Positions 14,301 through 35,727 of a stretch of DNA of 59,218 bases are shown piece by piece. Position numbers and translations under genes: made by a program. The notes under the pieces were generated by a model. That model ran no database searches, had not been told where the DNA came from, and was given only the letters and a program-made list of their open reading frames with translations. Each line of letters starts with the position of its first letter. The stretch's first letter is position 1. The stretch is taken from NCBI GenBank assembly GCA_964583985.1, contig CAZOYD010000017.1, positions 1 to 59,218 on the forward strand, read 5' to 3'. The DNA comes from an uncultured archaeon. Lineage in GTDB: Archaea; Asgardarchaeota; Lokiarchaeia; Sigyniarchaeales; SOKP01.

Positions 14301-17474
<3,174 letters not shown>

Positions 17475-17477
17475 AGT

Positions 17478-18545: not shown

Positions 18546-18584
18546 ATTTCATGCACCTTTTACTTCAATATTTTATATTTAATC

Positions 18585-18992
18585 TCACTTCTTTAAAAAA
18601 TCAAAAATACTTAATAATGCTAATAATTTTAAAATCCCTCTCATTTTCACCTTTCCTAATATCCATTTTAAGCCTATACCAACGATTGAAATCCTGTTCA
18701 TGGCCAGCGCGAGAAAAATTTGAGAATCCATGGAAATAAATCCGTCCCAACCAATTAATTTCTTTTTCAAATTTGATTCTGGTTTATTTGGCACGCTCTC
18801 AACCTTCAATACTCCTTGATTAACGGATATCAAGGCAGCATGATCTAAATTTGAGGCATTTATCAAAAATTTTCTGTTTAATTTATTAAATTTTTCTTTA
18901 AATTCTGGATTCTCATTCAACGGCTCCATTATACTTTTAATTAATCCTGCAAATCCTCTTGCATTTGGATTCACCATGCTTTCATTATCCAT
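18585..18992 (-). CDS. SCP2-like sterol/lipid-binding protein
   Basis: Small protein ending ISMDSQIFLALAMNRI...WILGKVKMRG..KLL, the SCP2 C-terminal pattern. Confidence 0.6.
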   Translation of the reverse strand: MDNESMVNPNARGFAGLIKSIMEPLNENPEFKEKFNKLNRKFLINASNLDHAALISVNQGVLKVESVPNKPESNLKKKLIGWDGFISMDSQIFLALAMNRISIVGIGLKWILGKVKMRGILKLLALLSIFDFLKK

Positions 18993-19026
18993 TTATCTCA
19001 CTTGCTTATTAATTTAATAATATCTA

Positions 19027-20586
19027 TTATTTTGCTGTAATATAGAATCCCGAATCAGCAATTCCCTTTGGATCAAATGCCTTTTTTATTTTTCTTAACC
19101 ATTTATTATAATTCATCATTTCTGGACCGAACAAATCATGCATTCTATCCCCTTCAACAAAAAAAGGAGCTCCAAGGTGTTTAATCAGATCAAATTGATA
19201 ATTTTCTTCCATGTTTTCAGCCATACCCTTAACACTTTTCTCATCGGTTTGATCAAACATTGTAGGAGATTCGATATGGAAATAATGCCCCGATTCATAG
19301 GAGGTTATCCACACTCCCTCTCCAAAATCATTTCCGATTACGCCTCTTTTTATATATTTCTTTTTTAAGGGAATGCTCATCTTAGTTGTATTAACACATA
19401 CATTTGCTGTATCACACTGTCCTTTTGAGGATTGAAATCCTCCAGTTGCAATAAAACCATGAAGTCCTAAATTTGATCGCAAAGCTTCAGCGTAAAATAA
19501 AGAATTTGGAGTGTACTTACTTCCTATTACGTTTTCTAATTTAAAATCATCAATTACTTTACTCATCACCTTTTGTTTATAATCAAATTCTCTTTTTGTT
19601 CTAGCTGCAATGAGAACTACCAAGGGTACAAGCATTCCGGCTATTGGAATTTTATCCATTAATGATTCAATACTATTAGAAAAGATAGCTCCTAATCCAT
19701 ATCCAGAAAGATGACTGCAAATGAAAGAGATTTCCTCTTCTTCAATTTTCAAAAACACTTTTTCTAAGTAATTATAACTTTTACAGTCCATGACATATAA
19801 TTTCATATAATCGGGAATTTCAAATTCATAATTGGGTGAATTACCACTTAATTTGAAGTTGGTACTGCAAGGGTATGGAAAGAGCTTGAACGCAACTTTA
19901 GTAAATATGCCTATTCCTGATTTTGCTCCTGCCCATCCACGCATGATCCCTCTCAAACTTGGACCGGGACCATCTCCGATGTACCAATCTGGATTATTTT
20001 TCATTCCTGCAGATCCTAATCTTAAAATTTCTCCATCGGGTAAGACCCATTCGACCCCCAATACATTTCGAGCACTATGACCCGTGTGGGGAGAAGTAAA
20101 TCCCGGACCATTCATACTAGTAGCACTAGCTAAAGGCGAAACTTGAGGACCTGCTCCGGGCATGTGAACCGTTAGACCATACTTCATGGTTTCTGCTTGT
20201 AATTGTGCTCCACTTACATATGGTTCAACAACGGCATAAAGAGATCTATCATCAATTTTAATTATTTTATTCATTCTCCTTAAATCGATAATTACACAAT
20301 TTTCTGAAGAAGGTTGATTCCACGGGCCAAGTCCTGTAGATTGAGCTTTAAATTGAATGTTATATTCATTACAAATTCTAACAATTTGTTGTACTTCTTC
20401 CGTACTTGAAGGTAACAATACCGCTTTTGGAACTGAAGAGAAAGGGATCGGTTCTTTTTCCTCCATGCAATTAACAAATTCCATACACCAATTGTAAGAA
20501 TACGCATTTGTCATTACTTCGCCATCATCAACGTTTTCAGGACCGACTACTTTCTGAAATTTCTCTAATATGTGTTTTTGTAGTAT
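19027..20586 (-). CDS. FAD-binding oxidoreductase (GlcD/VAO family); probable non-canonical ATA start at 20586 (first ATG 20514)
   Basis: AVLLPSSTEEVQQIVRICN, STG, IDLRRMNKI, VEPYV, LGVEWVLPDGE, GIFTK, KKAFDPKG; open in-frame upstream extension LQKHILEKFQKVVGPENV. Confidence 0.85.
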   Translation of the reverse strand: MLQKHILEKFQKVVGPENVDDGEVMTNAYSYNWCMEFVNCMEEKEPIPFSSVPKAVLLPSSTEEVQQIVRICNEYNIQFKAQSTGLGPWNQPSSENCVIIDLRRMNKIIKIDDRSLYAVVEPYVSGAQLQAETMKYGLTVHMPGAGPQVSPLASATSMNGPGFTSPHTGHSARNVLGVEWVLPDGEILRLGSAGMKNNPDWYIGDGPGPSLRGIMRGWAGAKSGIGIFTKVAFKLFPYPCSTNFKLSGNSPNYEFEIPDYMKLYVMDCKSYNYLEKVFLKIEEEEISFICSHLSGYGLGAIFSNSIESLMDKIPIAGMLVPLVVLIAARTKREFDYKQKVMSKVIDDFKLENVIGSKYTPNSLFYAEALRSNLGLHGFIATGGFQSSKGQCDTANVCVNTTKMSIPLKKKYIKRGVIGNDFGEGVWITSYESGHYFHIESPTMFDQTDEKSVKGMAENMEENYQFDLIKHLGAPFFVEGDRMHDLFGPEMMNYNKWLRKIKKAFDPKGIADSGFYITAK

Positions 20587-20588
20587 GA

Positions 20589-21908
20589 TTAATCAACCTC
20601 AGATAGTATTTGTGCTAATTTTTCTGGATCTAAACCCATTGCCATTAAGAGCAACTCACTTATATCATAATACTTTAGATGGGATCCCCTCGAATTTATT
20701 CCATCTTGTAAATTTGTAGAACAAAATGGGCAAGCTGATATCATGACTTGAGCTCCAGTATCTTCCGCTTCTTCTATTCTTAGTTCTGCAGTTTTAAGTG
20801 CCATTTCTGGGAAAGCGGCTTTAACTCCACCACCCGCTCCACAGCAATATGCATATTCTCTAATTCTCTCCATTTCTACTAATTTTAGTCCGGGAATTTT
20901 TTTGAGAATGTTCCGGGGGGCATCGTAAATGCCGTTCTTTCCCGCTCTTTTAGGTTTAGGAGGGATGTCCATGGAGATTAAAGGTAATATCTGAACCGTG
21001 TCCCCTTCCCACTCTTCATACCTCTCAGCATTTCTTCCTAAATGGCACGGATCATGATAAGTCACTTTTATCGGAATTTCTTTTGTTAATTTTAATCTTC
21101 CAATTTCAAGTAACTTCTCAAAATATTCAACAGCGTGAACTACTTTAAAATTATAATTTCTGTACAAGGGATAATCAACCTTGAAAGTATCATAACAACC
21201 TGCGCAGCTGAATATAATCGTTTCTATTCCTTTTGATTCGATAACATCAAGGTTTCTATTTAATACTTGTTCGAACGTGTCAAGTTCCCCAGTTCTTAGA
21301 ATTGGGCTGCCACAACAATATTCCTCATCACGTAAAATATTAAATGAAATTCCCGCGGCATTTAATATCCTTGCTGTAGCAATTGCCATCTCTTTTCTCC
21401 TATAGGATGAGGTGCATCCAATATAATACAAAACCTTAGCCTTACTATCGATTTTAATATCTTCGGGGAACCAATCAGCTCTCTCCTCATGGGGTTCGTT
21501 ATAGGGATTATTAAACTCTCTAATTGATTGGATGTATTCTTCTTGTTTTGGCATTGGACCACACCCCGCCTTAACCAATTTTTCCCTTAACCTCATTATA
21601 ATCTCTAAAGGTTCTAATGTATTAAGAAATTTGCAGGCAATGGCACAATTACCGCATTCAGTGCATTTATACACGATATCACGTAATTCCTCAGAAGGAG
21701 TGATCCTACCCATCTCTAACGCTAACGCTAAGATTATCTTTCCTCCTCCACTATAAGGATGAAAATTATAAAGGTCAATCGCAGGGCATGCTGTTGCATA
21801 TTTCTTGCTCTTAATTTGCACTTGTGGTATCCACTTGCAAATTGAACACCTTAAACAGCGTTTTATCATCGTTTGATATGCTTCTTCATTTAACTGCATT
21901 ATTTTCAC
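20589..21908 (-). CDS. Fe-S oxidoreductase with CCG domains (GlcF/HdrD/GlpC-like)
   Basis: CLRCSIC, CTECGNCAIAC, YYIGC, EYCCG, YHDPCHLGR, CCGAGGG, SACPFC. Confidence 0.92.
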   Translation of the reverse strand: MKIMQLNEEAYQTMIKRCLRCSICKWIPQVQIKSKKYATACPAIDLYNFHPYSGGGKIILALALEMGRITPSEELRDIVYKCTECGNCAIACKFLNTLEPLEIIMRLREKLVKAGCGPMPKQEEYIQSIREFNNPYNEPHEERADWFPEDIKIDSKAKVLYYIGCTSSYRRKEMAIATARILNAAGISFNILRDEEYCCGSPILRTGELDTFEQVLNRNLDVIESKGIETIIFSCAGCYDTFKVDYPLYRNYNFKVVHAVEYFEKLLEIGRLKLTKEIPIKVTYHDPCHLGRNAERYEEWEGDTVQILPLISMDIPPKPKRAGKNGIYDAPRNILKKIPGLKLVEMERIREYAYCCGAGGGVKAAFPEMALKTAELRIEEAEDTGAQVMISACPFCSTNLQDGINSRGSHLKYYDISELLLMAMGLDPEKLAQILSEVD

Positions 21909-23381
21909 CTATTTTACATCAAAGCAGAGAACTCCTGGATTCAACACGTTTTTTGGATCAAAAATACTTTTTACTTTTCGTAATGCAATAGAAGTTTGTT
22001 GATCATGTCTTGAATATACTTCTTTTGCCCAAACACCATACGGTCGATTAAAAAACGCCCCGCTATCCATTAAATCGATACTAATTTCATTAAAATTTGC
22101 TTCAAGTTCCTTCGTTGCACCCTCATTCTTACTATCATAAAAAAAAACAAATTCACAATGGTAAGATGTGCCTTGATTAATTGGTTGAATATAAACCCCT
22201 AAATCTTCTTTATACTTCGATTTCACTTTCTTAATATAATTTGGGATACTTTCAAAATTACTGATAAAGAAAATATCTTGATAATTCCCCTTATATCTTG
22301 CTCGCCATGGTTCGGAAGTGCAATTATTTATACAATATAGGATATCATTTCGATCTAGTTTATCAGTGCTTTCAAGATGATCAAACTTAGCTTCTATCAT
22401 GAGATCACCTATATCGCCTTCGAGATAATTTAACTTATCAAGGGTTAAATTTCCTCTACCAGCTAAAATGTAAATTAAATTCCATTTCAAAAGTGATTTG
22501 TTCAAATCTTCTATTTCATCTTTTTGTTTTTTAACTAAGCAGGCCAAATTTAGATTATTTAAAATGAAAGTCTCATCACATAATCTATATTTCACGAGTT
22601 TTTGTTGAAAATCTAATAGTTCTTCGATGTTATCAGAATGATAATGGAAGACTTTTTGTTCTGAAGGTATTAATTCTAATTTCAAAGTAGCCCATGTTAC
22701 GACTCCTAAACTACCTTGAGCTCCTTGTATCACTCTATAAGGACTAAATTGAGTTGGTCCCATGGGATTCACTTGAGCTTGACCAGCTTTCTTTTGTTGA
22801 GAAATTGTTCCAGGTCCTGCTGCTGTTCCAGTTCTAAATAAATCACCTGTTCCAAATACCACTTCCGTGCATAATAAAGGATCAGACGTGTCCCAATGAT
22901 AACGTGGTATCATTATTGGTTCACGTTCAAGAACACTCGTGAGTGCTGATTTTGACCCGGTAGGATGCAAGGGGAGTGCTAACCTAACACCATGTTGTCT
23001 TAGTTTAGGAATGAGTTTTTCAAAGGTAACTCCCGGCTCGATCATGACCACTCGGTTCTTTCTATCAATAGATAGAATTTTATCAATGTTGGTCAAGTCC
23101 ATTATGATACAATTATCTTTTCGGGGCACTGTATCTCCATGGTATCTAAACTTTGAACTTGAACTTACTGGAATTATGGAAAATTCCATTTGGTTAGCAA
23201 GTTTTAGAATTTTGATGATTTCTTGAGTTTTTGATGGCCAAATTATTAATTTAGGACTGATCCCTTTGAGAAAACTCATATCGCTTGAATAGTGGCTTAA
23301 ATTTTGAGGATCATTTGATATATTTTTAGTTCCACAGATTTTTGCTAAAACGTGAGATAATTTGTCTTCAAAATATTTCAT
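21909..23381 (-). CDS. FAD-binding oxidoreductase (second, divergent GlcD/GlcE-like subunit)
   Basis: IIWPSKTQEI, IEPGVTF, EVVFGTGDLFRTG, GAQGSLGVVT, KSIFDPKNVLNPG. Confidence 0.85.
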   Translation of the reverse strand: MKYFEDKLSHVLAKICGTKNISNDPQNLSHYSSDMSFLKGISPKLIIWPSKTQEIIKILKLANQMEFSIIPVSSSSKFRYHGDTVPRKDNCIIMDLTNIDKILSIDRKNRVVMIEPGVTFEKLIPKLRQHGVRLALPLHPTGSKSALTSVLEREPIMIPRYHWDTSDPLLCTEVVFGTGDLFRTGTAAGPGTISQQKKAGQAQVNPMGPTQFSPYRVIQGAQGSLGVVTWATLKLELIPSEQKVFHYHSDNIEELLDFQQKLVKYRLCDETFILNNLNLACLVKKQKDEIEDLNKSLLKWNLIYILAGRGNLTLDKLNYLEGDIGDLMIEAKFDHLESTDKLDRNDILYCINNCTSEPWRARYKGNYQDIFFISNFESIPNYIKKVKSKYKEDLGVYIQPINQGTSYHCEFVFFYDSKNEGATKELEANFNEISIDLMDSGAFFNRPYGVWAKEVYSRHDQQTSIALRKVKSIFDPKNVLNPGVLCFDVK

Positions 23382-23532
23382 AAAATATCCCTATTTTAAT
23401 ATAAGATAACTACATTTTTTACTCAATAAAGATATTTTGTTAAATTTTATTATAAAGATATTCCATTTAAAAGAGAGATTTTTAAATCCTAACGCTTTTT
23501 AAATATAATAAATAATATAAAATGATGTTATT

Positions 23533-24426
23533 ATGAATATATTGCGTACGGATGATAAAAGATTTAAGGATCTCATTGATTTTCCTTATGAACCCCACTA
23601 TCAAGACGTTGAGGGTATAAGAATCCATTACATTGAAGAAGGACACAACGATTCAGAAGTAATATTATTAATGCACGGGGAACCCTCTTGGTCATTTCTA
23701 TATAGATACATGATACCAATATTAACGGATGCAGGATTTCGAGTAATCGCTCCAGATTTAGTTGGATTTGGGCGATCTGATAAACCAACCAATCAAACTG
23801 ATCATACATATCGAAAACACGTTGATTGGATGACAAAGTGGTTATTATTGCTAAATCTTAGGAACATAACTCTCTTTTGTCAAGATTGGGGATCTCTAAT
23901 TGGATTAAGAGTGGCCATAGAAAACAAAGATCGATTTAAAAGAATAGTATTATCGAATGGAGGATTACCTACGGGTCATCAGAAAATGAGCGAAGCATTT
24001 ACCAATTGGAGAAACTTTTCAAGAACTACTCCTGATTTTAGCATTCCGTTCATTATTCAAGGAGGTACAACTACTAAATTATCGAAAATAATTTTGAAAG
24101 GTTATGACGCTCCTTTTCCAGATGATACGTATAAAGCAGGAGCTCGAATCTTCCCCTCATTAGTTCCTATAAGTCCTGATGATCCAGAAAGTAAAGCAAA
24201 TACGGAGGCATTTGAACTGTTTAAAAAATGGGATAAGCCCTTTTTAACCGCTTTTTCAGATTCAGATCCCATAACTAAAGGAGGAGATAAAATATGGCAA
24301 GCACTAGTTCCAGGGGCTCAAAATCAAACTCACGTAATTATTAAAGGTGCTGGGCATTTCATTCAAGAAGATAAAGGTCCAGAAGTAGCAAAAACAATAA
24401 TGGATTTTATAAAAAAGAACCCCTAA
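23533..24426 (+). CDS. Haloalkane dehalogenase (alpha/beta hydrolase)
   Basis: HGEPSWSFLYR, APDLVGFGRSDKP, CQDWGSLIG (Asp nucleophile), YDAPFPD, GHFIQED. Confidence 0.92.
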   Translation: MNILRTDDKRFKDLIDFPYEPHYQDVEGIRIHYIEEGHNDSEVILLMHGEPSWSFLYRYMIPILTDAGFRVIAPDLVGFGRSDKPTNQTDHTYRKHVDWMTKWLLLLNLRNITLFCQDWGSLIGLRVAIENKDRFKRIVLSNGGLPTGHQKMSEAFTNWRNFSRTTPDFSIPFIIQGGTTTKLSKIILKGYDAPFPDDTYKAGARIFPSLVPISPDDPESKANTEAFELFKKWDKPFLTAFSDSDPITKGGDKIWQALVPGAQNQTHVIIKGAGHFIQEDKGPEVAKTIMDFIKKNP

Positions 24427-24506
24427 TCCTTTTTTTACAATAAGAAAAGGAAAATATTTGAAATAGGAGAAATTTACTATTTCATCAAATCATATTAAAA
24501 TGTCTG

Positions 24507-25766
24507 ATGAATATAAGTAATACTGGGAATATTAACTATCATGCATGGCCACTATTCATGATTTCATTCATCAGATTATTTTATATCTCGATATTTGAAA
24601 GGGCTTTACAGAATTATCTTTATTTTGCCATAAATATAAATACTGGCACATTAGGAATTATTTCATCAGCTGGATCCATAGCTTATATAATTGCTCCTCT
24701 TTTAGGTCAACAAATTACGAAAAAAGTGGGGATCCGTAATGCTCTCATCATTTCATCGATAGCAACTCCTTTATTAACGGGAGCTCAATTGGTTTTTTTT
24801 GAATCATGGTATTTAATAACTTGTAAAGTGATTTTGGGTTTAGTTACAGGGTTGGTTTGGCCAAATTGTTTCAACCTGCTTAATAGATGGCAAGTAATTA
24901 GCATGCCTAAGCGTTCAAAAAAAAATCTTAATTATTTTAATCTATCATGGAATTTAGGGTTTATCGGGGGGCTACTTACTGGATATTTATGGGCATTTCT
25001 ATGGGATGATTATATTGCGATGAAAATATCTTTCAGCATTTCATTTCTTCTAATCCCCTTTACTTTCCTTCTAAAAGAACCTAAAATAGGAGAAAAATCA
25101 GGGATGCTTTTCGATCAAGTAATAGAGAAGCTTCCTCCAGTAATGGTAGACCAAGATTCGAGAGTTAAAACAATGATGATGGCTTTTCCAATTACATTTT
25201 CGTGGATTGGATTAGTAATGTTATCTATTGCAAAATCTACCATAATATTCAATTACCCAATATTCATCAAAACTTTTGATACAAAATTATCCGATTTAAC
25301 CTACATTGTCCAAGCAGGAATCCAGTTAGGACAAGTATCGGGATTGATTTGGATTAATTCAATGAAACCATCTAAGAGAAAATTATCCTTACTCCTAAGT
25401 ATTTCAATAATTACACTGATTGCTTTTTCAATTCTTATTATTAGAGATATATTATTTATTACCATAATTAGTTTAGCTGCTGGGTTATTTTTTGGATTAA
25501 TACACGGGGTGGCTATGAAAATAATGCTTGATTATGGAACAGCGAAGAATACCACGAAATATTCGATGTTTAACGAGATTATAACGGGTATTGGATTTGG
25601 TTTAACTCCAATTTTTGCCGGGTATCTTGCTGAAATAAACATTTATTTGATATTTATATTTGTGGTGCTTTTTGGAGTAGTTATTTTGGCTTATCTCATG
25701 GCCCTATCAAGAAAAATCAAATGGGAGCAATTTAAACAAAATATATATAAGAATATAGGAGAATAA
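24507..25766 (+). CDS. MFS transporter
   Basis: About 12 hydrophobic helices; NLSWNLGFIGG and GIGFGLTPIFAGYL patterns. Confidence 0.75.
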   Translation: MNISNTGNINYHAWPLFMISFIRLFYISIFERALQNYLYFAININTGTLGIISSAGSIAYIIAPLLGQQITKKVGIRNALIISSIATPLLTGAQLVFFESWYLITCKVILGLVTGLVWPNCFNLLNRWQVISMPKRSKKNLNYFNLSWNLGFIGGLLTGYLWAFLWDDYIAMKISFSISFLLIPFTFLLKEPKIGEKSGMLFDQVIEKLPPVMVDQDSRVKTMMMAFPITFSWIGLVMLSIAKSTIIFNYPIFIKTFDTKLSDLTYIVQAGIQLGQVSGLIWINSMKPSKRKLSLLLSISIITLIAFSILIIRDILFITIISLAAGLFFGLIHGVAMKIMLDYGTAKNTTKYSMFNEIITGIGFGLTPIFAGYLAEINIYLIFIFVVLFGVVILAYLMALSRKIKWEQFKQNIYKNIGE

Positions 25767-25769
25767 ATA

Positions 25770-26294
25770 ATGGTTAATTATAAAGCCGTTATATTTTCGT
25801 TAATCCTTCCCGTAGGTGTCATTATTGTTATTCCTCTCTTAATTTACTTATTAACGGGGAGTAGTAATCACTATATTGCATTAAGTTCTAATATGTATTA
25901 TCTGATTCTGGGATTCTTTTTAGTCATAATCGGTTTATATTTATTGGTCATATGCATTTCAATTTTCTATAAAAAGGGTAAAGGAACCCTCATGCCATTA
26001 TCAAAAATGCATACTCAACATTTAGTGATTATTGGACCCTATAAGTACGTCAGAAATCCCATGATAATAGGCGTAATTCTAACCGTGTTTGGTGAAGCTT
26101 TCATTTTCGAATCCATAAGTACTTTTATTTGCGCTATCATTTTCTTCATTCTAAATCTCATTTATATTCCCTTAATCGAAGAAAAAGGGGTTCTGAAAAG
26201 ATTTGGTAAGGAATTTATCCAATATAAAAGAGAAGTAAATGGGTGGATTCCTAAATTCAAAGCTTATGATCCTTCAAAAACAAAAAAAATATGA
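25770..26294 (+). CDS. ICMT/PEMT-family membrane methyltransferase
   Basis: LVIIGPYKYVRNPM and EEKGVLKRFGKEFIQYKREVNGWIP. Confidence 0.87.
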   Translation: MVNYKAVIFSLILPVGVIIVIPLLIYLLTGSSNHYIALSSNMYYLILGFFLVIIGLYLLVICISIFYKKGKGTLMPLSKMHTQHLVIIGPYKYVRNPMIIGVILTVFGEAFIFESISTFICAIIFFILNLIYIPLIEEKGVLKRFGKEFIQYKREVNGWIPKFKAYDPSKTKKI

Positions 26295-26354
26295 TCATAA
26301 AATTCATATTTCTACCAAATATATTCATAATAGAAAAATTACGAGATAAATAAC

Positions 26355-27575
26355 ATGAAATATAGAAAAATGGGTTCTCTTGGATGGGAGGTATCAGCCC
26401 TCGGATTTGGTGCTATGAGATTACCAATAAATCAAGATACCAAGGAAGTAAATGAGAAAGAAGCAATTGAAATGATTCGCTATGCAATTGATAATGGAGT
26501 TAATTATGTAGACACGGCTTATCCTTACCATGATGGGAAAAGTGAGGTCATAGTAGGAATGGCATTAAAAGATGGATATCGCGAAAAAGTCACTCTCACA
26601 ACAAAACTTCCAGTATGGTTCGTTACAGACGCTAATGACGTTGATAAATTTTTAAGCGAACAAATTGATAGATTGGGAACCACTCCAGATATTTATTTAT
26701 TTCACGGATTAAATGAACCCCGCCTTGAAAAAATAAAACAATTAGGCTTGATAACGAAAATGGAAGATGCAAGAGCCAATGGGTTGTTTAAATACATAGG
26801 ATTTTCTTTTCATGATAGTATAGACGTGTTTAAAGAAATCATTGATTATCATAATTGGGATTGCTGCCAGATTCAGTTAAATTATACTGATGTGAATTAT
26901 CAAGCTGGATTGAAAGGACTGGAATATGCTGGGAAAAAAGGAATCGCTGTAATAATAATGGAACCCCTAAAAGGAGGAAAATTGACCGTTCCCGATAAAA
27001 AATTAGTTGATGTTCCTGAAATCAAAAAAGCATTAGACAATAGTGAAATCAAAAGATCAATGGCCGATTGGGGTTTACAATTCCTTTGGAATAGACCTGA
27101 AGTTTCGGTTGTGTTAAGTGGCATGAGTAATTTACAACAAGTCAAAGAAAATATTCAATCCGCGAATAATTCAGGAATTAACACATTATCAGACAAAGAA
27201 ATGAATGTAATTAGAAATTTACAGCAAGCATTTGAAAAATACAATCTCATTCCTTGTACAAGTTGTGGATATTGCATGCCTTGTCCTAATGGAGTCTCAA
27301 TTAAGAATATCCTCTATGTCATGAATGAAATTGGATATTGGGGAGAACAAGGAAAACAACGCATAGGTTTCTTCTACAACAGAATGGCAAAAACTCAAGA
27401 AACCTTGGAGGAATTGAAGTCTAAGGGGGCAGAAGCGGAAGGTTCAGCCCTTTTGTGCATTGAATGTGGAGAGTGTTTAGATAAATGTCCCCAACAAATA
27501 GACATTCCAAAATTTATGAAACAAGCAGTTGCCATATTCGATGAGGATAAGAAAGTATCCGAAGTTTTAGATTAA
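26355..27575 (+). CDS. Aldo/keto reductase with C-terminal Fe-S domain
   Basis: SALGFGAMRLP, DTAYPYH, IGFSFH, MEPLKGG, CTSCGYCMPCP, CIECGECLDKCPQ. Confidence 0.92.
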   Translation: MKYRKMGSLGWEVSALGFGAMRLPINQDTKEVNEKEAIEMIRYAIDNGVNYVDTAYPYHDGKSEVIVGMALKDGYREKVTLTTKLPVWFVTDANDVDKFLSEQIDRLGTTPDIYLFHGLNEPRLEKIKQLGLITKMEDARANGLFKYIGFSFHDSIDVFKEIIDYHNWDCCQIQLNYTDVNYQAGLKGLEYAGKKGIAVIIMEPLKGGKLTVPDKKLVDVPEIKKALDNSEIKRSMADWGLQFLWNRPEVSVVLSGMSNLQQVKENIQSANNSGINTLSDKEMNVIRNLQQAFEKYNLIPCTSCGYCMPCPNGVSIKNILYVMNEIGYWGEQGKQRIGFFYNRMAKTQETLEELKSKGAEAEGSALLCIECGECLDKCPQQIDIPKFMKQAVAIFDEDKKVSEVLD

Positions 27576-27666
27576 TCTTTTTTTTTATTATATAACATGT
27601 TCGGGTCAAGGTTTAAAATCAACTTGAAATTTAATTTAAACAAAAACCAATTTTGTTAAGAAAATC

Positions 27667-27984
27667 ATGAAAAAAACAGAAATTTCAAATTTAGATGAAA
27701 TGCTCGACTTCCAAGAAGGTTCAGTTGTTAGTAGAGCGCTAATAAATAAAGAAAGGGGCAATGTTACGTTATTTTCTTTTGATAAAGATGAAGGGTTAAG
27801 CGAACATTCTGCACCTTTCGATGCGCTAGTTTACATTTTTGATGGAAAAGCGAAAATTACCATTTCAAAAATAGACTATTTTCTTGAAAAGGGACAAATG
27901 ATTTTAATGCCTGCAAATGAACCGCATGGACTTAAAGCGATTGAGAAATTTAAAATGATGCTTATAATGATTAAATCTGATTAA
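27667..27984 (+). CDS. Cupin domain protein
   Basis: FSFDKDEGLSEHSAPFDA ... MPANEPHGLKA. Confidence 0.9.
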   Translation: MKKTEISNLDEMLDFQEGSVVSRALINKERGNVTLFSFDKDEGLSEHSAPFDALVYIFDGKAKITISKIDYFLEKGQMILMPANEPHGLKAIEKFKMMLIMIKSD

Positions 27985-28084
27985 ATTCTTTGGCAATTAT
28001 TCTCTCTTTTTTTAATTATTTAGGTTCTTTATCAAAATTGAAAAATACCCTAGTAAATAAAAAAAAAGGAAATTTAAAAATTTT

Positions 28085-29350
28085 TTAATAAACGGAATCT
28101 ATTCTGAAATAGATCGTATAACGGCAATCTCCCATATCATATCGATATCCAGACCAATACCATCCATTATTGATATAACCATGCCATGTAGAAGGACTCC
28201 ACCACCATTGGAAGGTAGGATAATCATCATCACCTGAAGTAGAATCATATTCAGAAGCTTGTACTCTAACTTTGCAATATGAGTCGTATGAAAATAGAGC
28301 ATAGTGATAATTATTCCAATCTAGTGCTTCGTGACTGCCCGCTGACTCCCAATTATCATTAGCATCATCAATCTTATCAAGATGATTATCATTTAAATCA
28401 CCGCCAGCAGCACAACTTGGAAAATAAGCTTCTCCAATCCAAAGCTTCAAGTACATCTCACCATCTCCCATAAGCCATCCTTCATGTTCATCGTCATAAT
28501 ACACTTCATCTATAAAAACAGTAAGTTTATAGAGGTCATTAGACGCATCAACAGCATAAGCACCTCCGGGGACACCATTACCATTTGGATCTGAATTCAT
28601 TTCCAAAGCGATTACTTGAGCATATTGTGACCAGTAGAGGTCTTCAGGGGATACTCCAATATTAAAAGGTGAAAAATCTCCATCGAGATCTATCCCTATT
28701 ACTGATTTATATGCTGCCCAAGCCAATTCTGAGCAATAATATCCATCGGGGGCGATCTCAGGATCGGCTGTATCAATATCAACTTGTTTTCCAAGCCAGT
28801 TCCAATCATATCCTTCATCATAACCAATCTTTGAAACCGCAAAATTTACAATTGCTGCTCTTTCAGATGAGGATAATAATGCACCACCCGGTTTTAATAC
28901 TCTCATTGCGACAACATTTCCTGCATGATCGTTGACTACGTTAGTGAATCTGGAAGTTCTTAGACCAGACCCATGATCATCCATCGTTGAATGAACAACC
29001 CATGTTTCTCCTGAAGGAACCCAAGTGCCTTCTTCAGTTGCCCATATTTGATGATATCCCGCTACTCCACCAACAATAACCGTGTGAGACCACTTACCAG
29101 GAATGAGATAATCAAAAAAAGTATCATCAGTACCTAATAGTATGATATCGCCTGGTAGAAGGTTTATAGGGCTCATATCATTTGTACCTGAGCTTGCAAA
29201 AGAAGAATTTAACTCCGAACCGGAGACTTTAATCTCGCTACTAGGTGCAATTACATTATTAGGATAAATCACTGATACTGACGCAAAAACCATGGTGAGA
29301 ATGTAGATACATAAAATAGAAATTTCTTTTTTAGACGTATTTTTCTCCAT
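28085..29350 (-). CDS. Secreted or membrane-anchored permuted papain-like (YiiX/YebB-like NlpC/P60) protein with acidic C-terminal beta domain
   Basis: N-terminal hydrophobic helix; LLPGDIIL, WSHT (His), YDW, YYCSELAWAAY (Cys), VSPEDL. Confidence 0.8.
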   Translation of the reverse strand: MEKNTSKKEISILCIYILTMVFASVSVIYPNNVIAPSSEIKVSGSELNSSFASSGTNDMSPINLLPGDIILLGTDDTFFDYLIPGKWSHTVIVGGVAGYHQIWATEEGTWVPSGETWVVHSTMDDHGSGLRTSRFTNVVNDHAGNVVAMRVLKPGGALLSSSERAAIVNFAVSKIGYDEGYDWNWLGKQVDIDTADPEIAPDGYYCSELAWAAYKSVIGIDLDGDFSPFNIGVSPEDLYWSQYAQVIALEMNSDPNGNGVPGGAYAVDASNDLYKLTVFIDEVYYDDEHEGWLMGDGEMYLKLWIGEAYFPSCAAGGDLNDNHLDKIDDANDNWESAGSHEALDWNNYHYALFSYDSYCKVRVQASEYDSTSGDDDYPTFQWWWSPSTWHGYINNGWYWSGYRYDMGDCRYTIYFRIDSVY

Positions 29351-29516
29351 TAAATATCACATTTTTTTAAAAAATTGGATTATTTAATGAAGGAGATGAC
29401 CTCATATTTAAAGATTGATCTTAGAGTGCTAATATTAATTGTATGAGATTTTATTAAAGTGGTTAGTTATAATTAGCTCGGAATTTATCACCTCTAGAAC
29501 ATATGATTATATACTC

Positions 29517-29589
29517 CGCATTAAAATAGGTGTATTTTAATTATGCCGAATAAAATATGATATATTTCAAAATTATCGAATTATTTACG
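29517..29589. promoter_or_regulatory. Three CGAA-N5-TTCG-like sites at 30-bp periodicity (putative Lrp-type operator array)
   Basis: CGCATTAAAATAG (29517), CGAATAAAATATG (29547), CGAATTATTTACG (29577); a further reverse site TGATTTTTATTCG at 29667-29679. Confidence 0.45.
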
Positions 29590-29684
29590 ATGAATTTAAA
29601 TAAAATAAATCTATATATTATAGCGTATATCAACTAAAATAGTTGAAATTTAGTTTTACTAAAAAATGATTTTTATTCGGTAAG

Positions 29685-29912
29685 GTGAAAAGATTGGTCA
29701 AGTGTCCAAAATGTGGTATGGAATATAGTTTAGGGACGAGAATTTACCATTTCTGTGAAGAACATTCAATCTGTCATGGTGTAATTTTTGGTGATGATCG
29801 GATTTGTAGATCTTGGAATTGTAATCCGATTGAAGATTTTAATCGACCTAATATTAAATTAACCCTAGATACCACTTATCATGATAAAAATATAGTTTTA
29901 GCTATTAAATAA
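29685..29912 (+). CDS. Small Cys/His-rich (zinc-finger-like) protein
   Basis: CPKC...HFC...CHG...CRSWNC; GTG start; T-rich tract downstream. Confidence 0.55.
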   Translation: MKRLVKCPKCGMEYSLGTRIYHFCEEHSICHGVIFGDDRICRSWNCNPIEDFNRPNIKLTLDTTYHDKNIVLAIK

Positions 29913-29953: not shown

Positions 29954-30379
29954 TTAAATATTTGAAAGTCTCACTGTTTTAAAAAAGAAATCTGTAATAG
30001 ATTTCATAGTTTCATAAAATTGCTTGATTTCCAATGGTTTGTTTATATAACAGTTAGCGTGAAGATCATATGCTTTTTTTAAATCTTCCTCGTTAGCGGA
30101 TATTGTTAATATTACGATAGGAATTCTTCTGTACTCTTCGTGTTCTTTAATTTCTTTTAACACTTCCAAACCCGTCATTTTTGGCAAATTGAGATCCAAA
30201 AAGATAAGATCAGGACGATTTTTTTTTTCTAAAAAGTGTAATGTGTCTACTCCATTGTGGACTACATACACTTCAGTAAAAACATCATTTTTATTTAAAG
30301 CTTCTTTAGTAAGATTGATATCTGCGGAATTATCTTCCACAAGCAAAATTTTAAACTTCTTCTTAATATTCTCGGTCAT
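29954..30379 (-). CDS. Stand-alone response regulator receiver (Rcp1-like)
   Basis: LLVEDN, FLDLNLPKMTG (phospho-Asp), LTIS, ANCYINKP. Confidence 0.93.
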   Translation of the reverse strand: MTENIKKKFKILLVEDNSADINLTKEALNKNDVFTEVYVVHNGVDTLHFLEKKNRPDLIFLDLNLPKMTGLEVLKEIKEHEEYRRIPIVILTISANEEDLKKAYDLHANCYINKPLEIKQFYETMKSITDFFFKTVRLSNI

Positions 30380-30384
30380 AATAA

Positions 30385-31458
30385 TTAATTTCCCCTCTGA
30401 TGATTTTTAACCCTTTTAATCATAATTGTAAAAAAGAAAGTAGAACCTTTTCCAAGTTCAGATTCAACCCATATCTCTCCACCATATCTTTGAATAATTT
30501 TTTTGCATATAGGTAAACCAATCCCTGTTCCAGGATATTCTTCTTTGGTATGCAACCGATAAAAAATATGATAAAGACGATCATGATATTTGGGATCTAT
30601 TCCTATACCATTGTCTTTAATTGAAAACACCCATTTATTGTTTAAACGATTAACCCCTATATGAATCACAGGAGGTTCATTTCTACGAAATTTAATTGCA
30701 TTACTCAAAAAATTTTGAAATAATTGTAAGAATTGGATTCGATCAACCTTCAACGTAGGTAAGGGATCATAAGTAATAATAGCATCACTTTCTTTAATTG
30801 CTTCTTGTAAATTGAATATGGCATCTTTTAAAATTGGTTCAAGATTATGCCATTCTAAAGGTTTTGCATGAGTAATAATTCGAGAATAACTCAGTAGATC
30901 TTTTATTAGGATATTCATTCTTTTTGCCCCATCAGTTATAAAATAAATAAATTCCTTACCATCTTGGTCTAGTTTGTTATGATACTTTTCTTCCAAGAGT
31001 TGAGAAAAACTAACGATTGCTCTTAGAGGTTCTTGTAAATCGTGAGAAGTTACATATGCAAATTGCTGAAGATCCTCATTTGAACGCTTCAGATCTGTAA
31101 TAATTTCATTTAACTCTATTTCTTTTTTTAAAATCTTTTCAGATAGAACTGTTACAATGACTCCAACGATTATTATCGAAATCTTAATCGAAAGACCATT
31201 AATAGCATTTTCTCCTAAGAACGATACTCCTTGACTAATCTGGACAACTAACAAGAAACCAATTAGAATTATAGGCACGAATAAACCTTTTCTTTTCCAC
31301 CACAAACAAGATATAATTGTTGGAATATAGAGAAAATTTACGATAAAAAAATGATTCTTAAGAAATACCTCAAAATAGATAATCAGTATACATGAAATAA
31401 TGAATAATATTAAAATAGAAAGAAAGATTACACGTTCTTTTCGATTAGATAATGTCAT
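30385..31458 (-). CDS. Membrane-bound sensor histidine kinase (Cph1-like HisKA/HATPase)
   Basis: About 4 N-terminal TM helices; H-box SHDLQEPLR, N-box NFLSNAIKF, DNGIGI, GTGIGLPIC, ESELGKGSTF. Confidence 0.94.
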   Translation of the reverse strand: MTLSNRKERVIFLSILILFIISCILIIYFEVFLKNHFFIVNFLYIPTIISCLWWKRKGLFVPIILIGFLLVVQISQGVSFLGENAINGLSIKISIIIVGVIVTVLSEKILKKEIELNEIITDLKRSNEDLQQFAYVTSHDLQEPLRAIVSFSQLLEEKYHNKLDQDGKEFIYFITDGAKRMNILIKDLLSYSRIITHAKPLEWHNLEPILKDAIFNLQEAIKESDAIITYDPLPTLKVDRIQFLQLFQNFLSNAIKFRRNEPPVIHIGVNRLNNKWVFSIKDNGIGIDPKYHDRLYHIFYRLHTKEEYPGTGIGLPICKKIIQRYGGEIWVESELGKGSTFFFTIMIKRVKNHQRGN

Positions 31459-31557
31459 GGAGGTTTCTTTGAAGTGTTGTAAATTTAATATTCTTTCTCT
31501 TACATTATGAAAGTGAAATTACATATTTAAATTTCCTAGCAAGAAATTGAAAAAATT

Positions 31558-31601
31558 AAAATTTTATTCGTTTTCTACAATAAGAGTCCGAATTAAAATT
31601 T
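31558..31601. promoter_or_regulatory. Two CGAA-N5-like sites 31 bp apart in the divergent kinase / REC-Lrp promoter region
   Basis: AAAATTTTATTCG (31558-31570) and CGAATTAAAATTT (31589); GAGTCCGAAT (31584) is identical to 34048 upstream of gdhA. Confidence 0.45.
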
Positions 31602-31707
31602 ATGATTATTAGATTTCTTCATTAACCATTAATTTAAAATAATCTTTTAATGAATTAGTTACATATTAAAATGAAAATTATTCAATTTGTAAGAGTTGAG
31701 AACATAG

Positions 31708-32580
31708 TTGAAAATATTGTTAATTGAAGACAATCCCGCTGATATACGTCTTATTAAGGAACTATTGAAAAAAACCTCCTTAGGTCCTTTTGAAATTAAT
31801 ACTTGTACGCGACTTTCTGAAGGTTTAGATTATATTAAAAAGAAAAATATTGATGTGATATTGTTAGATCTAACCTTACCCGATAGTGATAAAGATTCTA
31901 CTCTATCTAGTATTTTAGGCTATACCTTAAAATATCCAATTATTATCCTAACTGGATACGATGATAAAGAGATCGCTCTAAATTCTTTAAATAGAGGAAT
32001 TCAAGATTATTTAGTGAAGGGAGAATTAAATGAAACTATATTAGCTCGCTCTATTCTATATGGAATTGAAAGGCATAAGATAAAAGTTCAAGATGATTTA
32101 AACAAAGTTGGGCTAGCTTCATTGGATAATAAAGACAAGATGATCCTCAATATTTTACAAGAGAATTATAAAATATCCTTTAAAGAAATAAGTAAAAGAA
32201 TCCATCTTGCAGCAAGTACAATTCATGCTCGTGTAAAAAATATGATTAGTGAAGGAATCATCGAAAAATTTGATACTCTTATTAATCCATATAAAGTTGG
32301 TTATGAAACTATAGCTTTTATTAGTCTATCAATCGATCCATCAAACATAAGTGAAATATCTAATAAACTGAAATATTTTGATGAAATTCAACTTATCGCA
32401 GGAATCGCGGGAGAGTTTAATCTCCTTTTACAAATCATAACTAAAAATGAGAAAGAATTATGGGAATTAATCAACAAAGAAATAAAACCGATTTTAGAGA
32501 CAAAGTCACAAATGAATGTATTTAGTATTATCGATGTTTTTAAAAGAACCTTAAAAATAAAATTAAAAATTGAAGATTAA
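31708..32580 (+). CDS. Response regulator: receiver domain fused to a full Lrp/AsnC transcription factor
   Basis: REC: LLIEDN, LLDLTLPD, LTG, DYLVKG. Lrp HTH: LDNKDKMILNILQENYKISFKEISKRIHLAASTIHARVKNMISEGII. RAM domain: INPYKVGY...IAGEFNLLL. Confidence 0.9.
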   Translation: MKILLIEDNPADIRLIKELLKKTSLGPFEINTCTRLSEGLDYIKKKNIDVILLDLTLPDSDKDSTLSSILGYTLKYPIIILTGYDDKEIALNSLNRGIQDYLVKGELNETILARSILYGIERHKIKVQDDLNKVGLASLDNKDKMILNILQENYKISFKEISKRIHLAASTIHARVKNMISEGIIEKFDTLINPYKVGYETIAFISLSIDPSNISEISNKLKYFDEIQLIAGIAGEFNLLLQIITKNEKELWELINKEIKPILETKSQMNVFSIIDVFKRTLKIKLKIED

Positions 32581-32585
32581 CTTAC

Positions 32586-33917
32586 CTATGGAAATATTCC
32601 CCTTAATTCAATAGCTCTTGCTAGTCTTGATATAGCAATAATGTAGGCCGCTGTTCTCAAGCTCACATTTCTTTTTATAGAAAGTTGGTACACTTCTTCA
32701 AAAGTATTAACCATGATACTCTCCAACTCACTATTTATCCGATCAAGCTTCCAAAAGTAACTATGAATGTCCTGAATATATTCGAAATAACTGACGCAAA
32801 CACCTCCAGCATTAGCTAATATATCTGGAACAACAATTATCCCTCTTTCTTTTAATATTTCATCAGCTTCAGGCGTAGTTGGTCCATTTGCTCCTTCTAA
32901 AACAATTTCACAGTTGATTTTATCAACATTTGAAAGACTTATTTGGTTCTCAATTGCGGCCGGTACCAAGATATCGCAATCTAAAGTTAGAAATTCATCA
33001 TTATGAACAAATATATAATCTTCTTCAGTGAAGTCTTTCAATAAACGGTTTTGATCTCTCCACTTAATTAATTTATTAATATCTAAACCATCTTTACTAT
33101 ATAAACCTCCGCTAATATCTGAAACAGCTAAAACTGTCGCTCCTTTTTCAAATAAAATCTGAGCAAATGTTCCTCCGACATTGCCAAATCCTTGAACAAC
33201 TATGGTAGCATTTGATAGCTCTAAATTCAATTTTTTGTATAAAGCATCAATCACAAAATACAATCCCATCCCTGTAGCACTTTCTCGCCCGACAGATCCC
33301 CCTATTTCTATTGGTTTACCAGTCACAACCCCCGGAATTGAACGTCCTTTTTGCATTGAATATACATCCATAATCCATGCCATAATCCTTTTATCTGTCC
33401 CCACATCTGGAGCAGGAATATCAATATCTGGACCAATTACGTTAATAATCTCGGCTGTATATCTTCTAGTTAACCTCTCAAGCTCTTTAAGTGATAATTT
33501 TCTAGGATCAACACAAACTCCCCCTTTTGCGCCCCCCAGAGGAAGATTAAGTAAACTATTTTTCCATGTCATCCACGTTGCAAGCGCTTTTACTTCATCC
33601 AAACAAACATCTGGTGAAAATCGAATTCCTCCTTTTCCTGGACCACGCACCGTGGAATGATGTACTCTGAATCCTTCAAAAACCTCAAGATCTCCATTAT
33701 CCATTACAACTGGAATGGATACTATAAGTGACCTTTCGACTTTTTTCAAATATTTAGTAATTCTCACATCTAAATTCATTTCTTTCGCTACTATATCAAT
33801 CTGCTTTTTTGCCATTTCATAGGGATTTCTGTTTTCCCTCTCTGGTTTCTTTAACTTTCTTGAATCCTTAATTTCATTCCTAATTACTATGGCTTCTTTA
33901 TAAATTTTTCTCCCCAC
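32586..33917 (-). CDS. gdhA: Glutamate dehydrogenase (Glu/Leu/Phe/Val dehydrogenase family)
   Basis: GPGKGGIRF, MTWK, GGAKGG, PAPDVGT, TGKPIEIGGS, QGFGNVG, EGANGP, PDILANAGGV. Confidence 0.95.
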   Translation of the reverse strand: MGRKIYKEAIVIRNEIKDSRKLKKPERENRNPYEMAKKQIDIVAKEMNLDVRITKYLKKVERSLIVSIPVVMDNGDLEVFEGFRVHHSTVRGPGKGGIRFSPDVCLDEVKALATWMTWKNSLLNLPLGGAKGGVCVDPRKLSLKELERLTRRYTAEIINVIGPDIDIPAPDVGTDKRIMAWIMDVYSMQKGRSIPGVVTGKPIEIGGSVGRESATGMGLYFVIDALYKKLNLELSNATIVVQGFGNVGGTFAQILFEKGATVLAVSDISGGLYSKDGLDINKLIKWRDQNRLLKDFTEEDYIFVHNDEFLTLDCDILVPAAIENQISLSNVDKINCEIVLEGANGPTTPEADEILKERGIIVVPDILANAGGVCVSYFEYIQDIHSYFWKLDRINSELESIMVNTFEEVYQLSIKRNVSLRTAAYIIAISRLARAIELRGIFP

Positions 33918-33931: not shown

Positions 33932-34065
33932 CGAATAAAATTCATTTCTATTTCTTCACATAAAATTAATTTTTTTGGTTAATTACATGTAAATAATCTC
34001 TTTTATCTATTATAAATCTACCGAACTAAATTCTGGGAAAATAGTGGGAGTCCGAATAAATTTCG
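33932..34065. promoter_or_regulatory. CGAA-N5-TTCN sites upstream of gdhA (putative Lrp-type operators)
   Basis: CGAATAAAATTCA (33932), CGAACTAAATTCT (34022) and CGAATAAATTTCG (34053; perfect inverted half-sites); the last two are 31 bp apart. Confidence 0.55.
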
Positions 34066-34365: not shown

Positions 34366-35727
34366 ATGGTATATTTCCAAGTTAGCCGAATAGGTTTTAA
34401 TTGCGGAAAAGAGAAAGAAGATTGTAGTTTTTATCCTGATAGCTGTAAAGAATGTGTGAAAACATATATTGCTAAAATAGGGTTCGATACAACTCAAAAT
34501 ATTAAAATATCAATGATGGATTCAGAAGAAAAAAGGATTCAGATGCAACAATCATTGATTTGGTACAAATTTATGGATGTTTTAAACATAAAATCGATGA
34601 TATTACAAACGAAAGATTCAGGACTGCTCATATTGAACTATCCAGTCTCAGGAACTAACCTTAATATTGATCTACTGATAGGTTTCATGCAAGCTAATAT
34701 TACCTTTTCAACTTCAAGATCATCAGAAACGAGAAATGACACTCAAAATTTCTATGAACTTCAATATGATACATTTAATTTGCTTATTAAAAATGGAAAT
34801 TTCATTAGAATCTGTTTAGTATTGGATGGAAAAGCTTCAGAAAGTTTCAAACTCAAAGTTTCTGAATTTTTAATTGAATATGAGAGAAAATATAATCAAA
34901 AGATTGAAAATCTCCTAAAATCTGGGATGCTTTATTTTGATGATACAATTGATTTTATCATCGAAAAATTCAACATCAAACTTGTTTTTCCAATGGTTTT
35001 AAGCCATATGATTTCACCGGGAGATTTAGAATTAATTAATAAAAATATCATTCAAAAGGCAGTGATTGATTATGCTAATGAACTTCTAAATGTTAAGAAA
35101 TTCTTCTTCATAAATAATCTCATTGATAAAGTGAAACCAATAGTTAATTCTCACTCATCAATAATATTATATGAAATTTACCAACTATTAGAAAGAAAAA
35201 TTATCATCCCTTCGAAAATTGAAAATATAGCAGTTGAAGTTAAAAAATTTCAAGAAACCCGTGCGAAGCGAATTGCCAATAACGAGTTAATATCATCCAT
35301 ACTTGCAAATGATGATGCTATAGACAATTTAAAAGAAAAAGCCCGAACTTTGGATGTCGAAGAAGCGAAACGACTTATGGAAAATTTTATCAAGAAAGGA
35401 GAAACCGCTGAAAAAGCTTTAGCTTATAAAGAAGCTCAAAAAGAATATGAAAAAGCACTATATTTGGCAACGGGGTTTAATTTTGAATTATCAATTGGAA
35501 GAATTTCATTCATTATACTCGAACTTGATAAAAAAATAAAAGCGCTAGAAATTGAATTTTGTTTAGAATACGGTGAAATAGCTGAAAAGAAGAAAGATTA
35601 TTTTAACGCAATTCAAAACTTTCAGGCCGCAATCGGAATTTTAGGTAATAATGGTGGTGCAATTGAGAATGCCTCACAGATAAAGAAATTAGAAAAACGA
35701 ATTTTATCATTGCAAAAACATCTCTAA
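34366..35727 (+). CDS. Asgard longin/roadblock-like domain protein with Cys-rich N-terminus and C-terminal helical (TPR/MIT-like) repeats
   Basis: C..C..CKEC at the N-terminus; IKSMILQTKDSGLLILNY...DLLIGFMQANITFS...YELQYDTFNLLIKNGNFIRICLVL longin-like pattern; AYKEAQKEYEKALYLA. Confidence 0.6.
   Translation: MVYFQVSRIGFNCGKEKEDCSFYPDSCKECVKTYIAKIGFDTTQNIKISMMDSEEKRIQMQQSLIWYKFMDVLNIKSMILQTKDSGLLILNYPVSGTNLNIDLLIGFMQANITFSTSRSSETRNDTQNFYELQYDTFNLLIKNGNFIRICLVLDGKASESFKLKVSEFLIEYERKYNQKIENLLKSGMLYFDDTIDFIIEKFNIKLVFPMVLSHMISPGDLELINKNIIQKAVIDYANELLNVKKFFFINNLIDKVKPIVNSHSSIILYEIYQLLERKIIIPSKIENIAVEVKKFQETRAKRIANNELISSILANDDAIDNLKEKARTLDVEEAKRLMENFIKKGETAEKALAYKEAQKEYEKALYLATGFNFELSIGRISFIILELDKKIKALEIEFCLEYGEIAEKKKDYFNAIQNFQAAIGILGNNGGAIENASQIKKLEKRILSLQKHL

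Follow-up and report, generated by a model that had tools for sequence, protein, structure and literature searches.

A receiver-Lrp/AsnC response regulator in a cassette with a membrane histidine kinase and a probable glutamate dehydrogenase of one Lokiarchaeial family

Archaeal response regulators rarely carry DNA-binding domains, and the two-component systems of archaea are thought to act mostly by protein-protein contacts (PMC5847659). The described proteins that place a two-component output on archaeal transcription are LtrR (a helix-turn-helix, HTH, followed by a receiver, REC), FilR1 (winged HTH or wHTH, DUF1724 and REC) and the Bat-type regulators (REC-...-HTH_10), all from methanogens and haloarchaea (PMC5847659). 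The best-studied archaeal transcription-factor family is Lrp/AsnC, whose members PH0140, FL11 (PH1519) and LrpA of Pyrococcus have amino-acid input and no N-terminal receiver. Archaeal Lrp proteins bind imperfect inverted repeats of 13-17 bp whose centre is AT-rich; the sites occur in clusters, at intervals of two or three helical turns, and the DNA is wrapped. Autoregulation is common, and LrpA represses through a site that adjoins the TATA box on its downstream side (PMC2995911). The locus presented here lies in a stretch of 59,218 nucleotides (the window) from an uncultured archaeon of the Lokiarchaeia (GCA_964583985.1, contig CAZOYD010000017.1, positions 1 to 59,218 of the forward strand) and contains a response regulator, REC-Lrp, in which an intact receiver is fused to a complete Lrp/AsnC protein.

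The REC-Lrp gene belongs to a cassette of five genes, the others encoding a small Zn-ribbon protein, a lone CheY-like receiver, a membrane histidine kinase and a probable glutamate dehydrogenase (GDH). A preliminary description, made from the letters of the window, had listed the stand-alone receiver, the membrane kinase, the divergent REC-Lrp and the GDH, and these four open reading frames (ORFs) were identified at the same coordinates; the fifth member, the Zn-ribbon gene, had been missed. The best explanation of the cassette is a self-contained accessory unit of one Lokiarchaeial family. It is judged fairly probable that REC-Lrp, controlled by the kinase, acts through candidate operators on its own gene, on the Zn-ribbon gene and on the dedicated GDH.

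The REC-Lrp gene (31708..32580, plus strand) starts with TTG, at the position where its homologs begin with M, and encodes 290 aa arranged as a receiver (residues 1 to about 125), a linker (about 126-137), a wHTH (139-186) and a RAM domain (about 200-285). The receiver matches Response_reg (PF00072) over residues 3-112 with 61.2 bits against a cut-off of 30.2, and the wHTH matches HTH_AsnC (PF13404) over residues 139-179 with 45.8 bits against a cut-off of 27, as well as PF13412 with 55.4 bits. The whole output half is covered by the NCBIfam AsnC model, where residues 138-283 align to model positions 6-152 of 153, and by a phmmer comparison with solved structures, where both HTH and RAM were aligned with PH0140 (6.5e-27), FL11 (2.6e-20) and LrpA (3.6e-17). 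Precomputed matches to PF01037 (RAM) are carried by homologs. Of the receiver residues, D54, T82 and K104 do not vary in an alignment of 40 homologs and E7 and D8 reach at least 90% conservation; the recognition-helix residues A168, S170, T171, H173, R175 and V176 are also invariant, as is G235 in the RAM domain, within a conserved (S/T)G(D/E)xx motif.

The AlphaFold2 (AF2) model of REC-Lrp has three folded domains and a low-confidence linker at residues 128-136, with a mean predicted local distance difference test (pLDDT) of 78.8. Strands and helices alternate over residues 2-131 of the receiver, mostly with pLDDT above 90, and a strand-helix-strand-strand-helix-strand pattern is found over residues 201-273 of the RAM domain. 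The predicted template modelling score of the monomer is 0.48, which gives no reliable arrangement of the domains, and no mechanism was read from the model. The best matches in a fold search with this model were Lrp/AsnC structures and full-length bacterial response regulators. REC-Lrp is an intact receiver fused to a complete Lrp/AsnC protein, as the preliminary description had read it: the receiver, with E7, D8, D54, T82 and K104, is confirmed by profile match and residue conservation, and the completeness of the C-terminal half by the agreement of the AsnC model, the phmmer comparison and the AF2 pattern. With its motifs LPDSxG and GAQDYLVKGEL the receiver shares 40-47% identity with those of many bacteria (loci L072-L109), belonging to the Myxococcota, Planctomycetota, Cyanobacteria and Chloroflexota; a bacterial origin is hinted at for the signalling half of the fusion.

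REC-Lrp shares its wHTH and RAM domain with PH0140, FL11 and LrpA, its top fold matches; unlike them it carries a phospho-acceptor domain, and its gene is wired to a kinase. With LtrR, FilR1 and the Bat-type regulators it has in common a two-component output on archaeal transcription, while these have other DNA-binding domains, other domain orders and no RAM domain. The succession of N-terminal receiver, linker and C-terminal HTH is that of the bacterial FixJ/NarL and OmpR types, and full-length FixJ, StyR, DesR and LiaR are among the fold matches; unlike in these types the output of REC-Lrp is an Lrp module of the oligomerising, ligand-binding type, and the promoters are archaeal (TATA box and transcription factor B recognition element, BRE). 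The architecture was not found named in the archaeal two-component census, in its text or in the supplements searched (PMC5847659), and outputs are outside the scope of a paper on the sensor kinases of Asgard archaea (PMC10343646). No published description turned up in the literature under REC-Lrp, REC-AsnC or receiver-Lrp, and automated annotation labels some family members "Lrp family regulator/CheY-like". The architecture is thus visible in databases yet undescribed. What is new in it is the output, for a response regulator, and the input, for an Lrp protein.

The family of REC-Lrp was searched among 5.8 billion proteins, and the best 120 clusters were listed. Nearly all of these are close to full length and all have E < 1e-79; all carry receiver and AsnC-type HTH families and nearly all RAM families too. 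Those that have a name are called "response regulator" or "winged helix-turn-helix transcriptional regulator", from metagenome-assembled genomes (MAGs) of Asgard archaea (Promethearchaeota). Clustering at 50% identity, with 1.84 billion representatives, leaves a single full-length representative of the family, and by sequence comparison REC-Lrp is one tight family of at least 50% identity. In a phylum sample of 300 genomes the matches at E <= 1e-40 are confined to the GTDB family of the window, a family of Lokiarchaeia where REC-Lrp was identified in 55 of 134 genomes and 5 of 13 genera, mostly in one copy each. Several 100% complete genomes of this family have no REC-Lrp, and such a patchy distribution even among complete genomes marks it as an accessory gene. 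There is one copy in the genome of the window, which encodes about 21 receivers and no fewer than 20 HisKA kinases.

Fusions outside this family were also considered. Two bacterial candidates with 28% full-length tblastn matches, L098 (Bryobacteraceae) and L110 (Myxococcota), turned out to be a REC-ParA-like protein and a REC-kinase hybrid. Nine candidates from the best 150 representatives at 50% identity, chosen for suitable length or extent of match, were REC-REC, REC-PAS, REC-HisKA or REC-GGDEF proteins; remote fusions scoring below about 112 bits fall outside this listing, and absence elsewhere does not follow from it. The MAGs with the cassette in loci L031-L064 are titled Hod-, Thor-, Odin- or Hermodarchaeota or plain Promethearchaeota at NCBI. 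Most of these loci are the same contigs as the matches of the genome search, all in one GTDB family, so the phylum-level names in these records are unreliable.

The membrane histidine kinase (30385..31458, minus strand, 357 aa) matches HisKA with 44.4 bits and HATPase_c with 91.4 bits, and has the boxes SHDLQEP at 138, NAIKF at 253, DNGIGI at 282, FYRLH at 299 and GTGIGL at 310. It has four transmembrane segments, with hydropathy peaks between residues 6 and 111, and a Pfam search of residues 1-125 identified no family, neither PAS nor another known sensor domain. Kinase orthologs are 63-79% identical, membrane part included. The kinase gene lies 5 nt upstream of the lone-receiver gene (29954..30379, minus strand, 141 aa; Response_reg 86.4 bits; E15, D16, D62, T92 and K114) and on the same strand, so that both probably form one operon. 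The lone receiver is kept adjacent to the kinase at 50-77% identity, and the REC-Lrp gene is divergent from the pair, across an intergenic region of 249 bp. The lone receiver and the H-box of the kinase (SHDLQEPLR) probably resemble the cyanobacterial pairs of a kinase and an Rcp1-like CheY receiver; unlike the Rcp1-type pairs, the cassette kinase has no photosensory or PAS/GAF domain, only the membrane bundle.

A full-length kinase ortholog was identified in 50 of the 55 genomes with REC-Lrp and in only 3 other genomes of the 134, counts in which related genomes are not independent. In at least two of the five REC-Lrp genomes lacking a full-length kinase the gene is cut by the end of a contig. 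The joint presence and joint absence within single genera argue that kinase and REC-Lrp are one functional unit, and the unit of kinase, lone receiver and REC-Lrp put forward in the preliminary description is upheld by this co-occurrence and by adjacency in two gene orders. Elsewhere in the genome, contig C41 contains a dense two-component cluster (13500-29600, locus L118) with hybrid kinases of 819, 1256 and 1532 aa, several receivers and a 387-aa REC-kinase hybrid which bears a paralog (53%) of the REC-Lrp receiver.

The loci compared here were obtained by a scan of 185,579 species genomes and by the phylum search, and the window proteins were compared with them by tblastn. The order Zn-ribbon gene, receiver, kinase, REC-Lrp and GDH is kept in about 30 species, with regulator identities of 50-63%, and the genes outside the cassette match in the closest relative only. 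In six loci kinase, receiver and REC-Lrp are co-directional instead. The synteny with kinase and gdhA in Lokiarchaeia that had been proposed as a check was thus found, the order being held while the flanks differ.

The enzyme at the end of the cassette (32586..33917, minus strand, 443 aa, GTG start at 33917) contains ELFV_dehydrog (PF00208, 266 bits) and ELFV_dehydrog_N (PF02812, 189 bits), and its best NCBIfam models are GdhA_Arch (510 bits against a cut-off of 750) and GdhB_Halo (508 against 620). The scores being below the equivalog cut-offs, the earlier label gdhA should read probable glutamate dehydrogenase. The genome of the window has four GDH paralogs. In a quick maximum-likelihood tree all 26 of 26 cassette-linked GDHs are on one side of a branch with 98% support in the Shimodaira-Hasegawa-like approximate likelihood ratio test (SH-aLRT); the sister groups comprise the remaining paralogs, along with the best GDHs from five genomes, 99-100% complete, that share the genus but lack the cassette. 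The tree was rooted at its midpoint, and the linked GDH is by these sequences a separate paralog clade, and part of the cassette, provided that the root lies outside the linked group. The proposed tie of the unit of kinase, lone receiver and REC-Lrp to GDH is sustained by this separate clade together with phased Lrp-type operator sites that are also found in the regulator's promoter. The three further paralogs (contigs C15:1103-3868 and C7:64883-66139) are 72%, 58% and 41% identical to the cassette copy; the 72% and 41% copies are a divergent pair, located just upstream of the cassette in L041, L042, L050 and L064.

Alignment of orthologous promoters identified a 13-bp palindrome, yGAAT-N3-ATTCr, conserved in all four promoters of the cassette. 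The array of the GDH promoter (33932..34065) comprises site 1 (34053-34065), site 2 (34022-34034) and site 3 (33932-33944). Site 2 precedes the TATA box (34010-34017, read on the minus strand as ATTTATAA) by 4 nt, and site 3 lies 15 nt before the GTG at 33917. The three sites keep positions and sequence in about 25 species and the intervening bases vary: one site is 4-5 nt upstream of the conserved TATA ATTTATAA, the next is 30-31 bp further up, a fourth is present another 30 bp up in some species, and one is 90 bp downstream, before the start codon. The Zn-ribbon promoter (29547..29679) has the same design, with a layout conserved in 23 aligned promoters. Its sites are 29547-29559, 29577-29589, which is 4-5 nt from a TATA-like TTTAAATA at 29595-29602, and 29667-29679, which ends 5 nt before the GTG start. 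Spacings in the window are 31 and 90 bp for the GDH array and 30 and 90 bp for the Zn-ribbon array. Beside the GDH promoter lies an ORF of 453 aa (34366-35727, plus strand) with no Pfam match, not kept beside the cassette in other species.

The core of the REC-Lrp promoter (31661..31684, plus strand) is a TATA-like element (31661-31668) followed by the operator TGAAAATTATTCA at 31672-31684, which is 23 nt before the TTG start. In nearly all other aligned REC-Lrp promoters (T/C)GAATATTATTCA is found directly 3' of the TATA-like TTTATATT, and 31 of 35 loci have a site of at least 9/10 within 200 bp upstream of REC-Lrp. The copy in the window scores 9/10 under the Y1/R13 rule and 7/10 against the strict consensus. 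On the kinase side two weaker operator-like sites (31558..31603: 31558-31570 and 31591-31603) flank an AT-rich stretch and are about 31-33 bp apart, 33 bp by these coordinates; the 29 aligned regions share the block TaAgAAtaTT.TcCaaTaTaaaaTaaATtTTA.CGAA.AAAAATat, where the half-sites alone are well conserved, and this is the weakest of the four promoters. The candidate operators of the cassette resemble those of archaeal Lrp proteins in being 13-bp AT-centred palindromes, in clusters of about three turns and in the own-promoter site beside the TATA box. Sites of Lrp type are conserved in REC-Lrp's own promoter and in the neighbouring ones.

A scan of the 3.8-Mb genome identified just two chains of three phased sites, one at each promoter that flanks the cassette, and the GDH promoters of the five cassette-less genomes have no such array. 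Exact CGAA-N5-TTCG occurs twice in the window against 0.5 expected, which is not significant alone; the operator signal emerged only with the degenerate palindrome, the phasing and the conservation across species. A wider regulon was also sought: the genome has 46 perfect yGAAT-N3-ATTCr sites, mostly inside long ORFs, and the few intergenic ones adjoin genes with no family matches, a Ras-like GTPase and an M20 peptidase, the latter with a perfect TGAATTTAATTCA site 47 bp upstream of its gene (contig C56:22310). Single sites are indistinguishable from chance, so no regulon is claimed beyond the cassette. In L063 (9143-12036), one of the co-directional cassettes, a phased three-site array follows REC-Lrp and precedes an ORF of 96 aa and genes for a universal stress protein and an acetyl-CoA hydrolase/transferase-GNAT fusion of 627 aa. 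The GDH there is 3.7 kb beyond, so that targets may differ between sub-lineages.

These elements may be assembled into a signalling path. The small membrane kinase, with the transmembrane bundle as its only sensor, would sense a cue at the level of the membrane and would be co-transcribed with the CheY-like receiver. It would phosphorylate both the lone receiver and D54 of REC-Lrp, a phosphotransfer that is presumed from adjacency in two gene orders and from co-occurrence. REC-Lrp, as dimers or higher oligomers of Lrp type, would bind the 13-bp yGAAT-N3-ATTCr palindromes, and phosphorylation would shift its oligomerisation or its DNA affinity at the phased sites. It would repress its own promoter and control the dedicated GDH and the Zn-ribbon gene, where arrays with a spacing of about 30 bp bracket the TATA box and the leader; the two weaker sites in the kinase promoter would also be bound. 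The expression of a GDH isoenzyme would thereby be set in an organism living on amino acids. Negative autoregulation is suggested by the REC-Lrp site, which lies after the TATA box and before the predicted start of transcription: a protein bound directly after the TATA-like element would block the recruitment of polymerase. The sign of control at GDH is not readable from position, since sites are present both upstream of the TATA box, as for Lrp-type activators, and in the leader. The preliminary reading is thus supported in part; its further proposals, that the regulator may integrate the membrane signal with an amino-acid ligand, which the RAM domain would bind, to control glutamate/nitrogen metabolism, and that the lone receiver may be a phosphate sink or relay, are speculative, and the target process may be amino-acid catabolism instead.

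Several observations weigh against this path. The RAM domain of REC-Lrp is slightly below the Pfam cut-offs (23.2 against 25 for PF01037 and 24.2 against 24.4 for PF22482). REC-Lrp and GDH are convergent, tail to tail, with 5 nt between the stop codons; the gap reported in the preliminary description is correct, and its convergent orientation, missed there, means that both genes are not co-transcribed and that adjacency alone implies no co-regulation. The operator of REC-Lrp and the kinase-side sites match less well in the window than in most relatives. The cassette promoters have 4.7-6.4 sites per kb, where the other 460 kb of the 35 loci have 0.28 per kb, an enrichment that overstates independence, the motif having been defined on the same promoters later counted and the loci being related; greater independence is offered by the scan of the whole genome and by the controls that lack the cassette. 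The receiver closest to that of REC-Lrp in the genome is the one in the hybrid kinase of contig C41 (53%), the neighbouring lone receiver being 40% identical, and cross-talk of REC-Lrp with other kinases is possible. Finally, the recognition helix LAASTIHNRV is common to REC-Lrp, to a Zn-ribbon-Lrp protein of other loci and to a stand-alone Lrp of contig C81, so the candidate operators could belong to these paralogs or be shared with them.

The last point leads to the alternative which survives best, although it is considered rather unlikely: that the operators are mainly those of a sister Lrp, either the Zn-ribbon-Lrp or an unlinked stand-alone Lrp, and that REC-Lrp acts through mixed oligomers, competition or other targets. 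The Zn-ribbon gene of the window (29685..29912, plus strand, GTG start) encodes 75 aa with C7, C10, H22, C24, H31 and C46 invariant, together with W44-N45, and Pfam gives weak zinc-ribbon hints only. This domain is stand-alone (58-84 aa) in 10 loci, window included, and in 13 it is the N-terminus of a Zn-ribbon-Lrp of 197-198 aa (for example L043:5456-6049). A second Lrp protein with the shared helix is encoded in 13 of 23 loci, under an array designed like that of GDH, which favours the sister. The stand-alone Lrp (contig C81:10018-10518, or L111:3019-3519; 166 aa) is 44% identical to the Lrp half of REC-Lrp and also speaks for this alternative by having two good sites 300-360 bp downstream; these, at C81:10815 and C81:10877, are 62 bp apart and stand in front of a gene for a 631-aa leucine-rich-repeat protein. 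On the opposite side, the best-conserved single site of all is in the REC-Lrp promoter, the ten loci whose Zn-ribbon gene has no Lrp part keep all arrays, and no arrays are seen upstream of GDH in the five cassette-less genomes, where stand-alone Lrp paralogs were left unchecked. Because REC-Lrp is the sole Lrp of the cassette in ten array-keeping loci and has the best-conserved site in its own promoter, it is the most economical binder, and it is taken here as the probable occupant of the candidate operators. When the 75-aa Zn-ribbon protein was modelled together with the Lrp half of REC-Lrp, the predicted complex scored 0.00, which gives no verdict and was not used.

A second alternative, regarded as quite unlikely, leaves REC-Lrp on its sites and detaches it from the kinase. 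Kinase and lone receiver would be a closed pair; REC-Lrp would receive its phosphate from another kinase or from small phosphodonors, or else its receiver would only be a constitutive dimerisation module. The genome offers at least 20 HisKA kinases as partners, the nearest paralog of the REC-Lrp receiver belongs to a hybrid kinase at another locus, and in most species the kinase is co-transcribed with the lone receiver and not with REC-Lrp. Against such a closed pair, 50 of the 55 genomes with REC-Lrp also have the kinase and most other genomes have neither; the two are adjacent in two gene orders, including the co-directional string of kinase, receiver and REC-Lrp; all phosphorylation residues of REC-Lrp are conserved; and operator-like sites are present in the kinase promoter.

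That GDH is adjacent merely through inherited gene order, without regulatory significance, and that the palindromes are chance or general promoter elements, might be argued from the carriers being all in one GTDB family, from the AT-rich DNA and from one half-site region that overlaps the expected BRE position, and is nevertheless very improbable, as the cassette is conserved and its outer flanks are not, the sites keep sequence and position while the bases between them diverge, three-site phased chains are unique to the cassette in 3.8 Mb, and the other GDH paralogs have no sites, the linked GDH being a clade of its own.

The path from kinase through REC-Lrp to GDH may also have a more elaborate form, proposed here tentatively and held to be doubtful. 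Two sister Lrp proteins, one with a receiver fed by the membrane kinase and one with a Cys/His zinc-ribbon input that is fused in some species and a small protein of its own in others, would share the operators and perhaps form mixed oligomers. Phosphorylation, a second cue (metal, redox or protein) and possibly an amino-acid ligand would then be computed on wrapped promoter DNA, switching the dedicated GDH.

Asgard archaea are the closest known relatives of eukaryotes, and we know of no sensor-to-gene signalling path traced in them. The cassette is a compact candidate for such a path, comprising one kinase, one or two receivers, an Lrp regulator, operators predicted to the single base and a single enzyme as target. 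As a target, GDH fits the biology: it is commonly the link between amino acids and 2-oxoacids, and amino-acid degradation appears to sustain Asgard archaea, cultured and uncultured alike (PMC7015854). If the control of REC-Lrp by the kinase is true, an Lrp protein, normally governed by ligands, would have been put under phosphorylation control, a new output class would be added to the response regulators, and an outside signal would plausibly reach amino-acid metabolism by this route. If the form with two sister Lrp proteins and two inputs is true, Asgard archaea would have in the cassette their first defined connection between a two-component system and transcription, and response regulators a new class of output.

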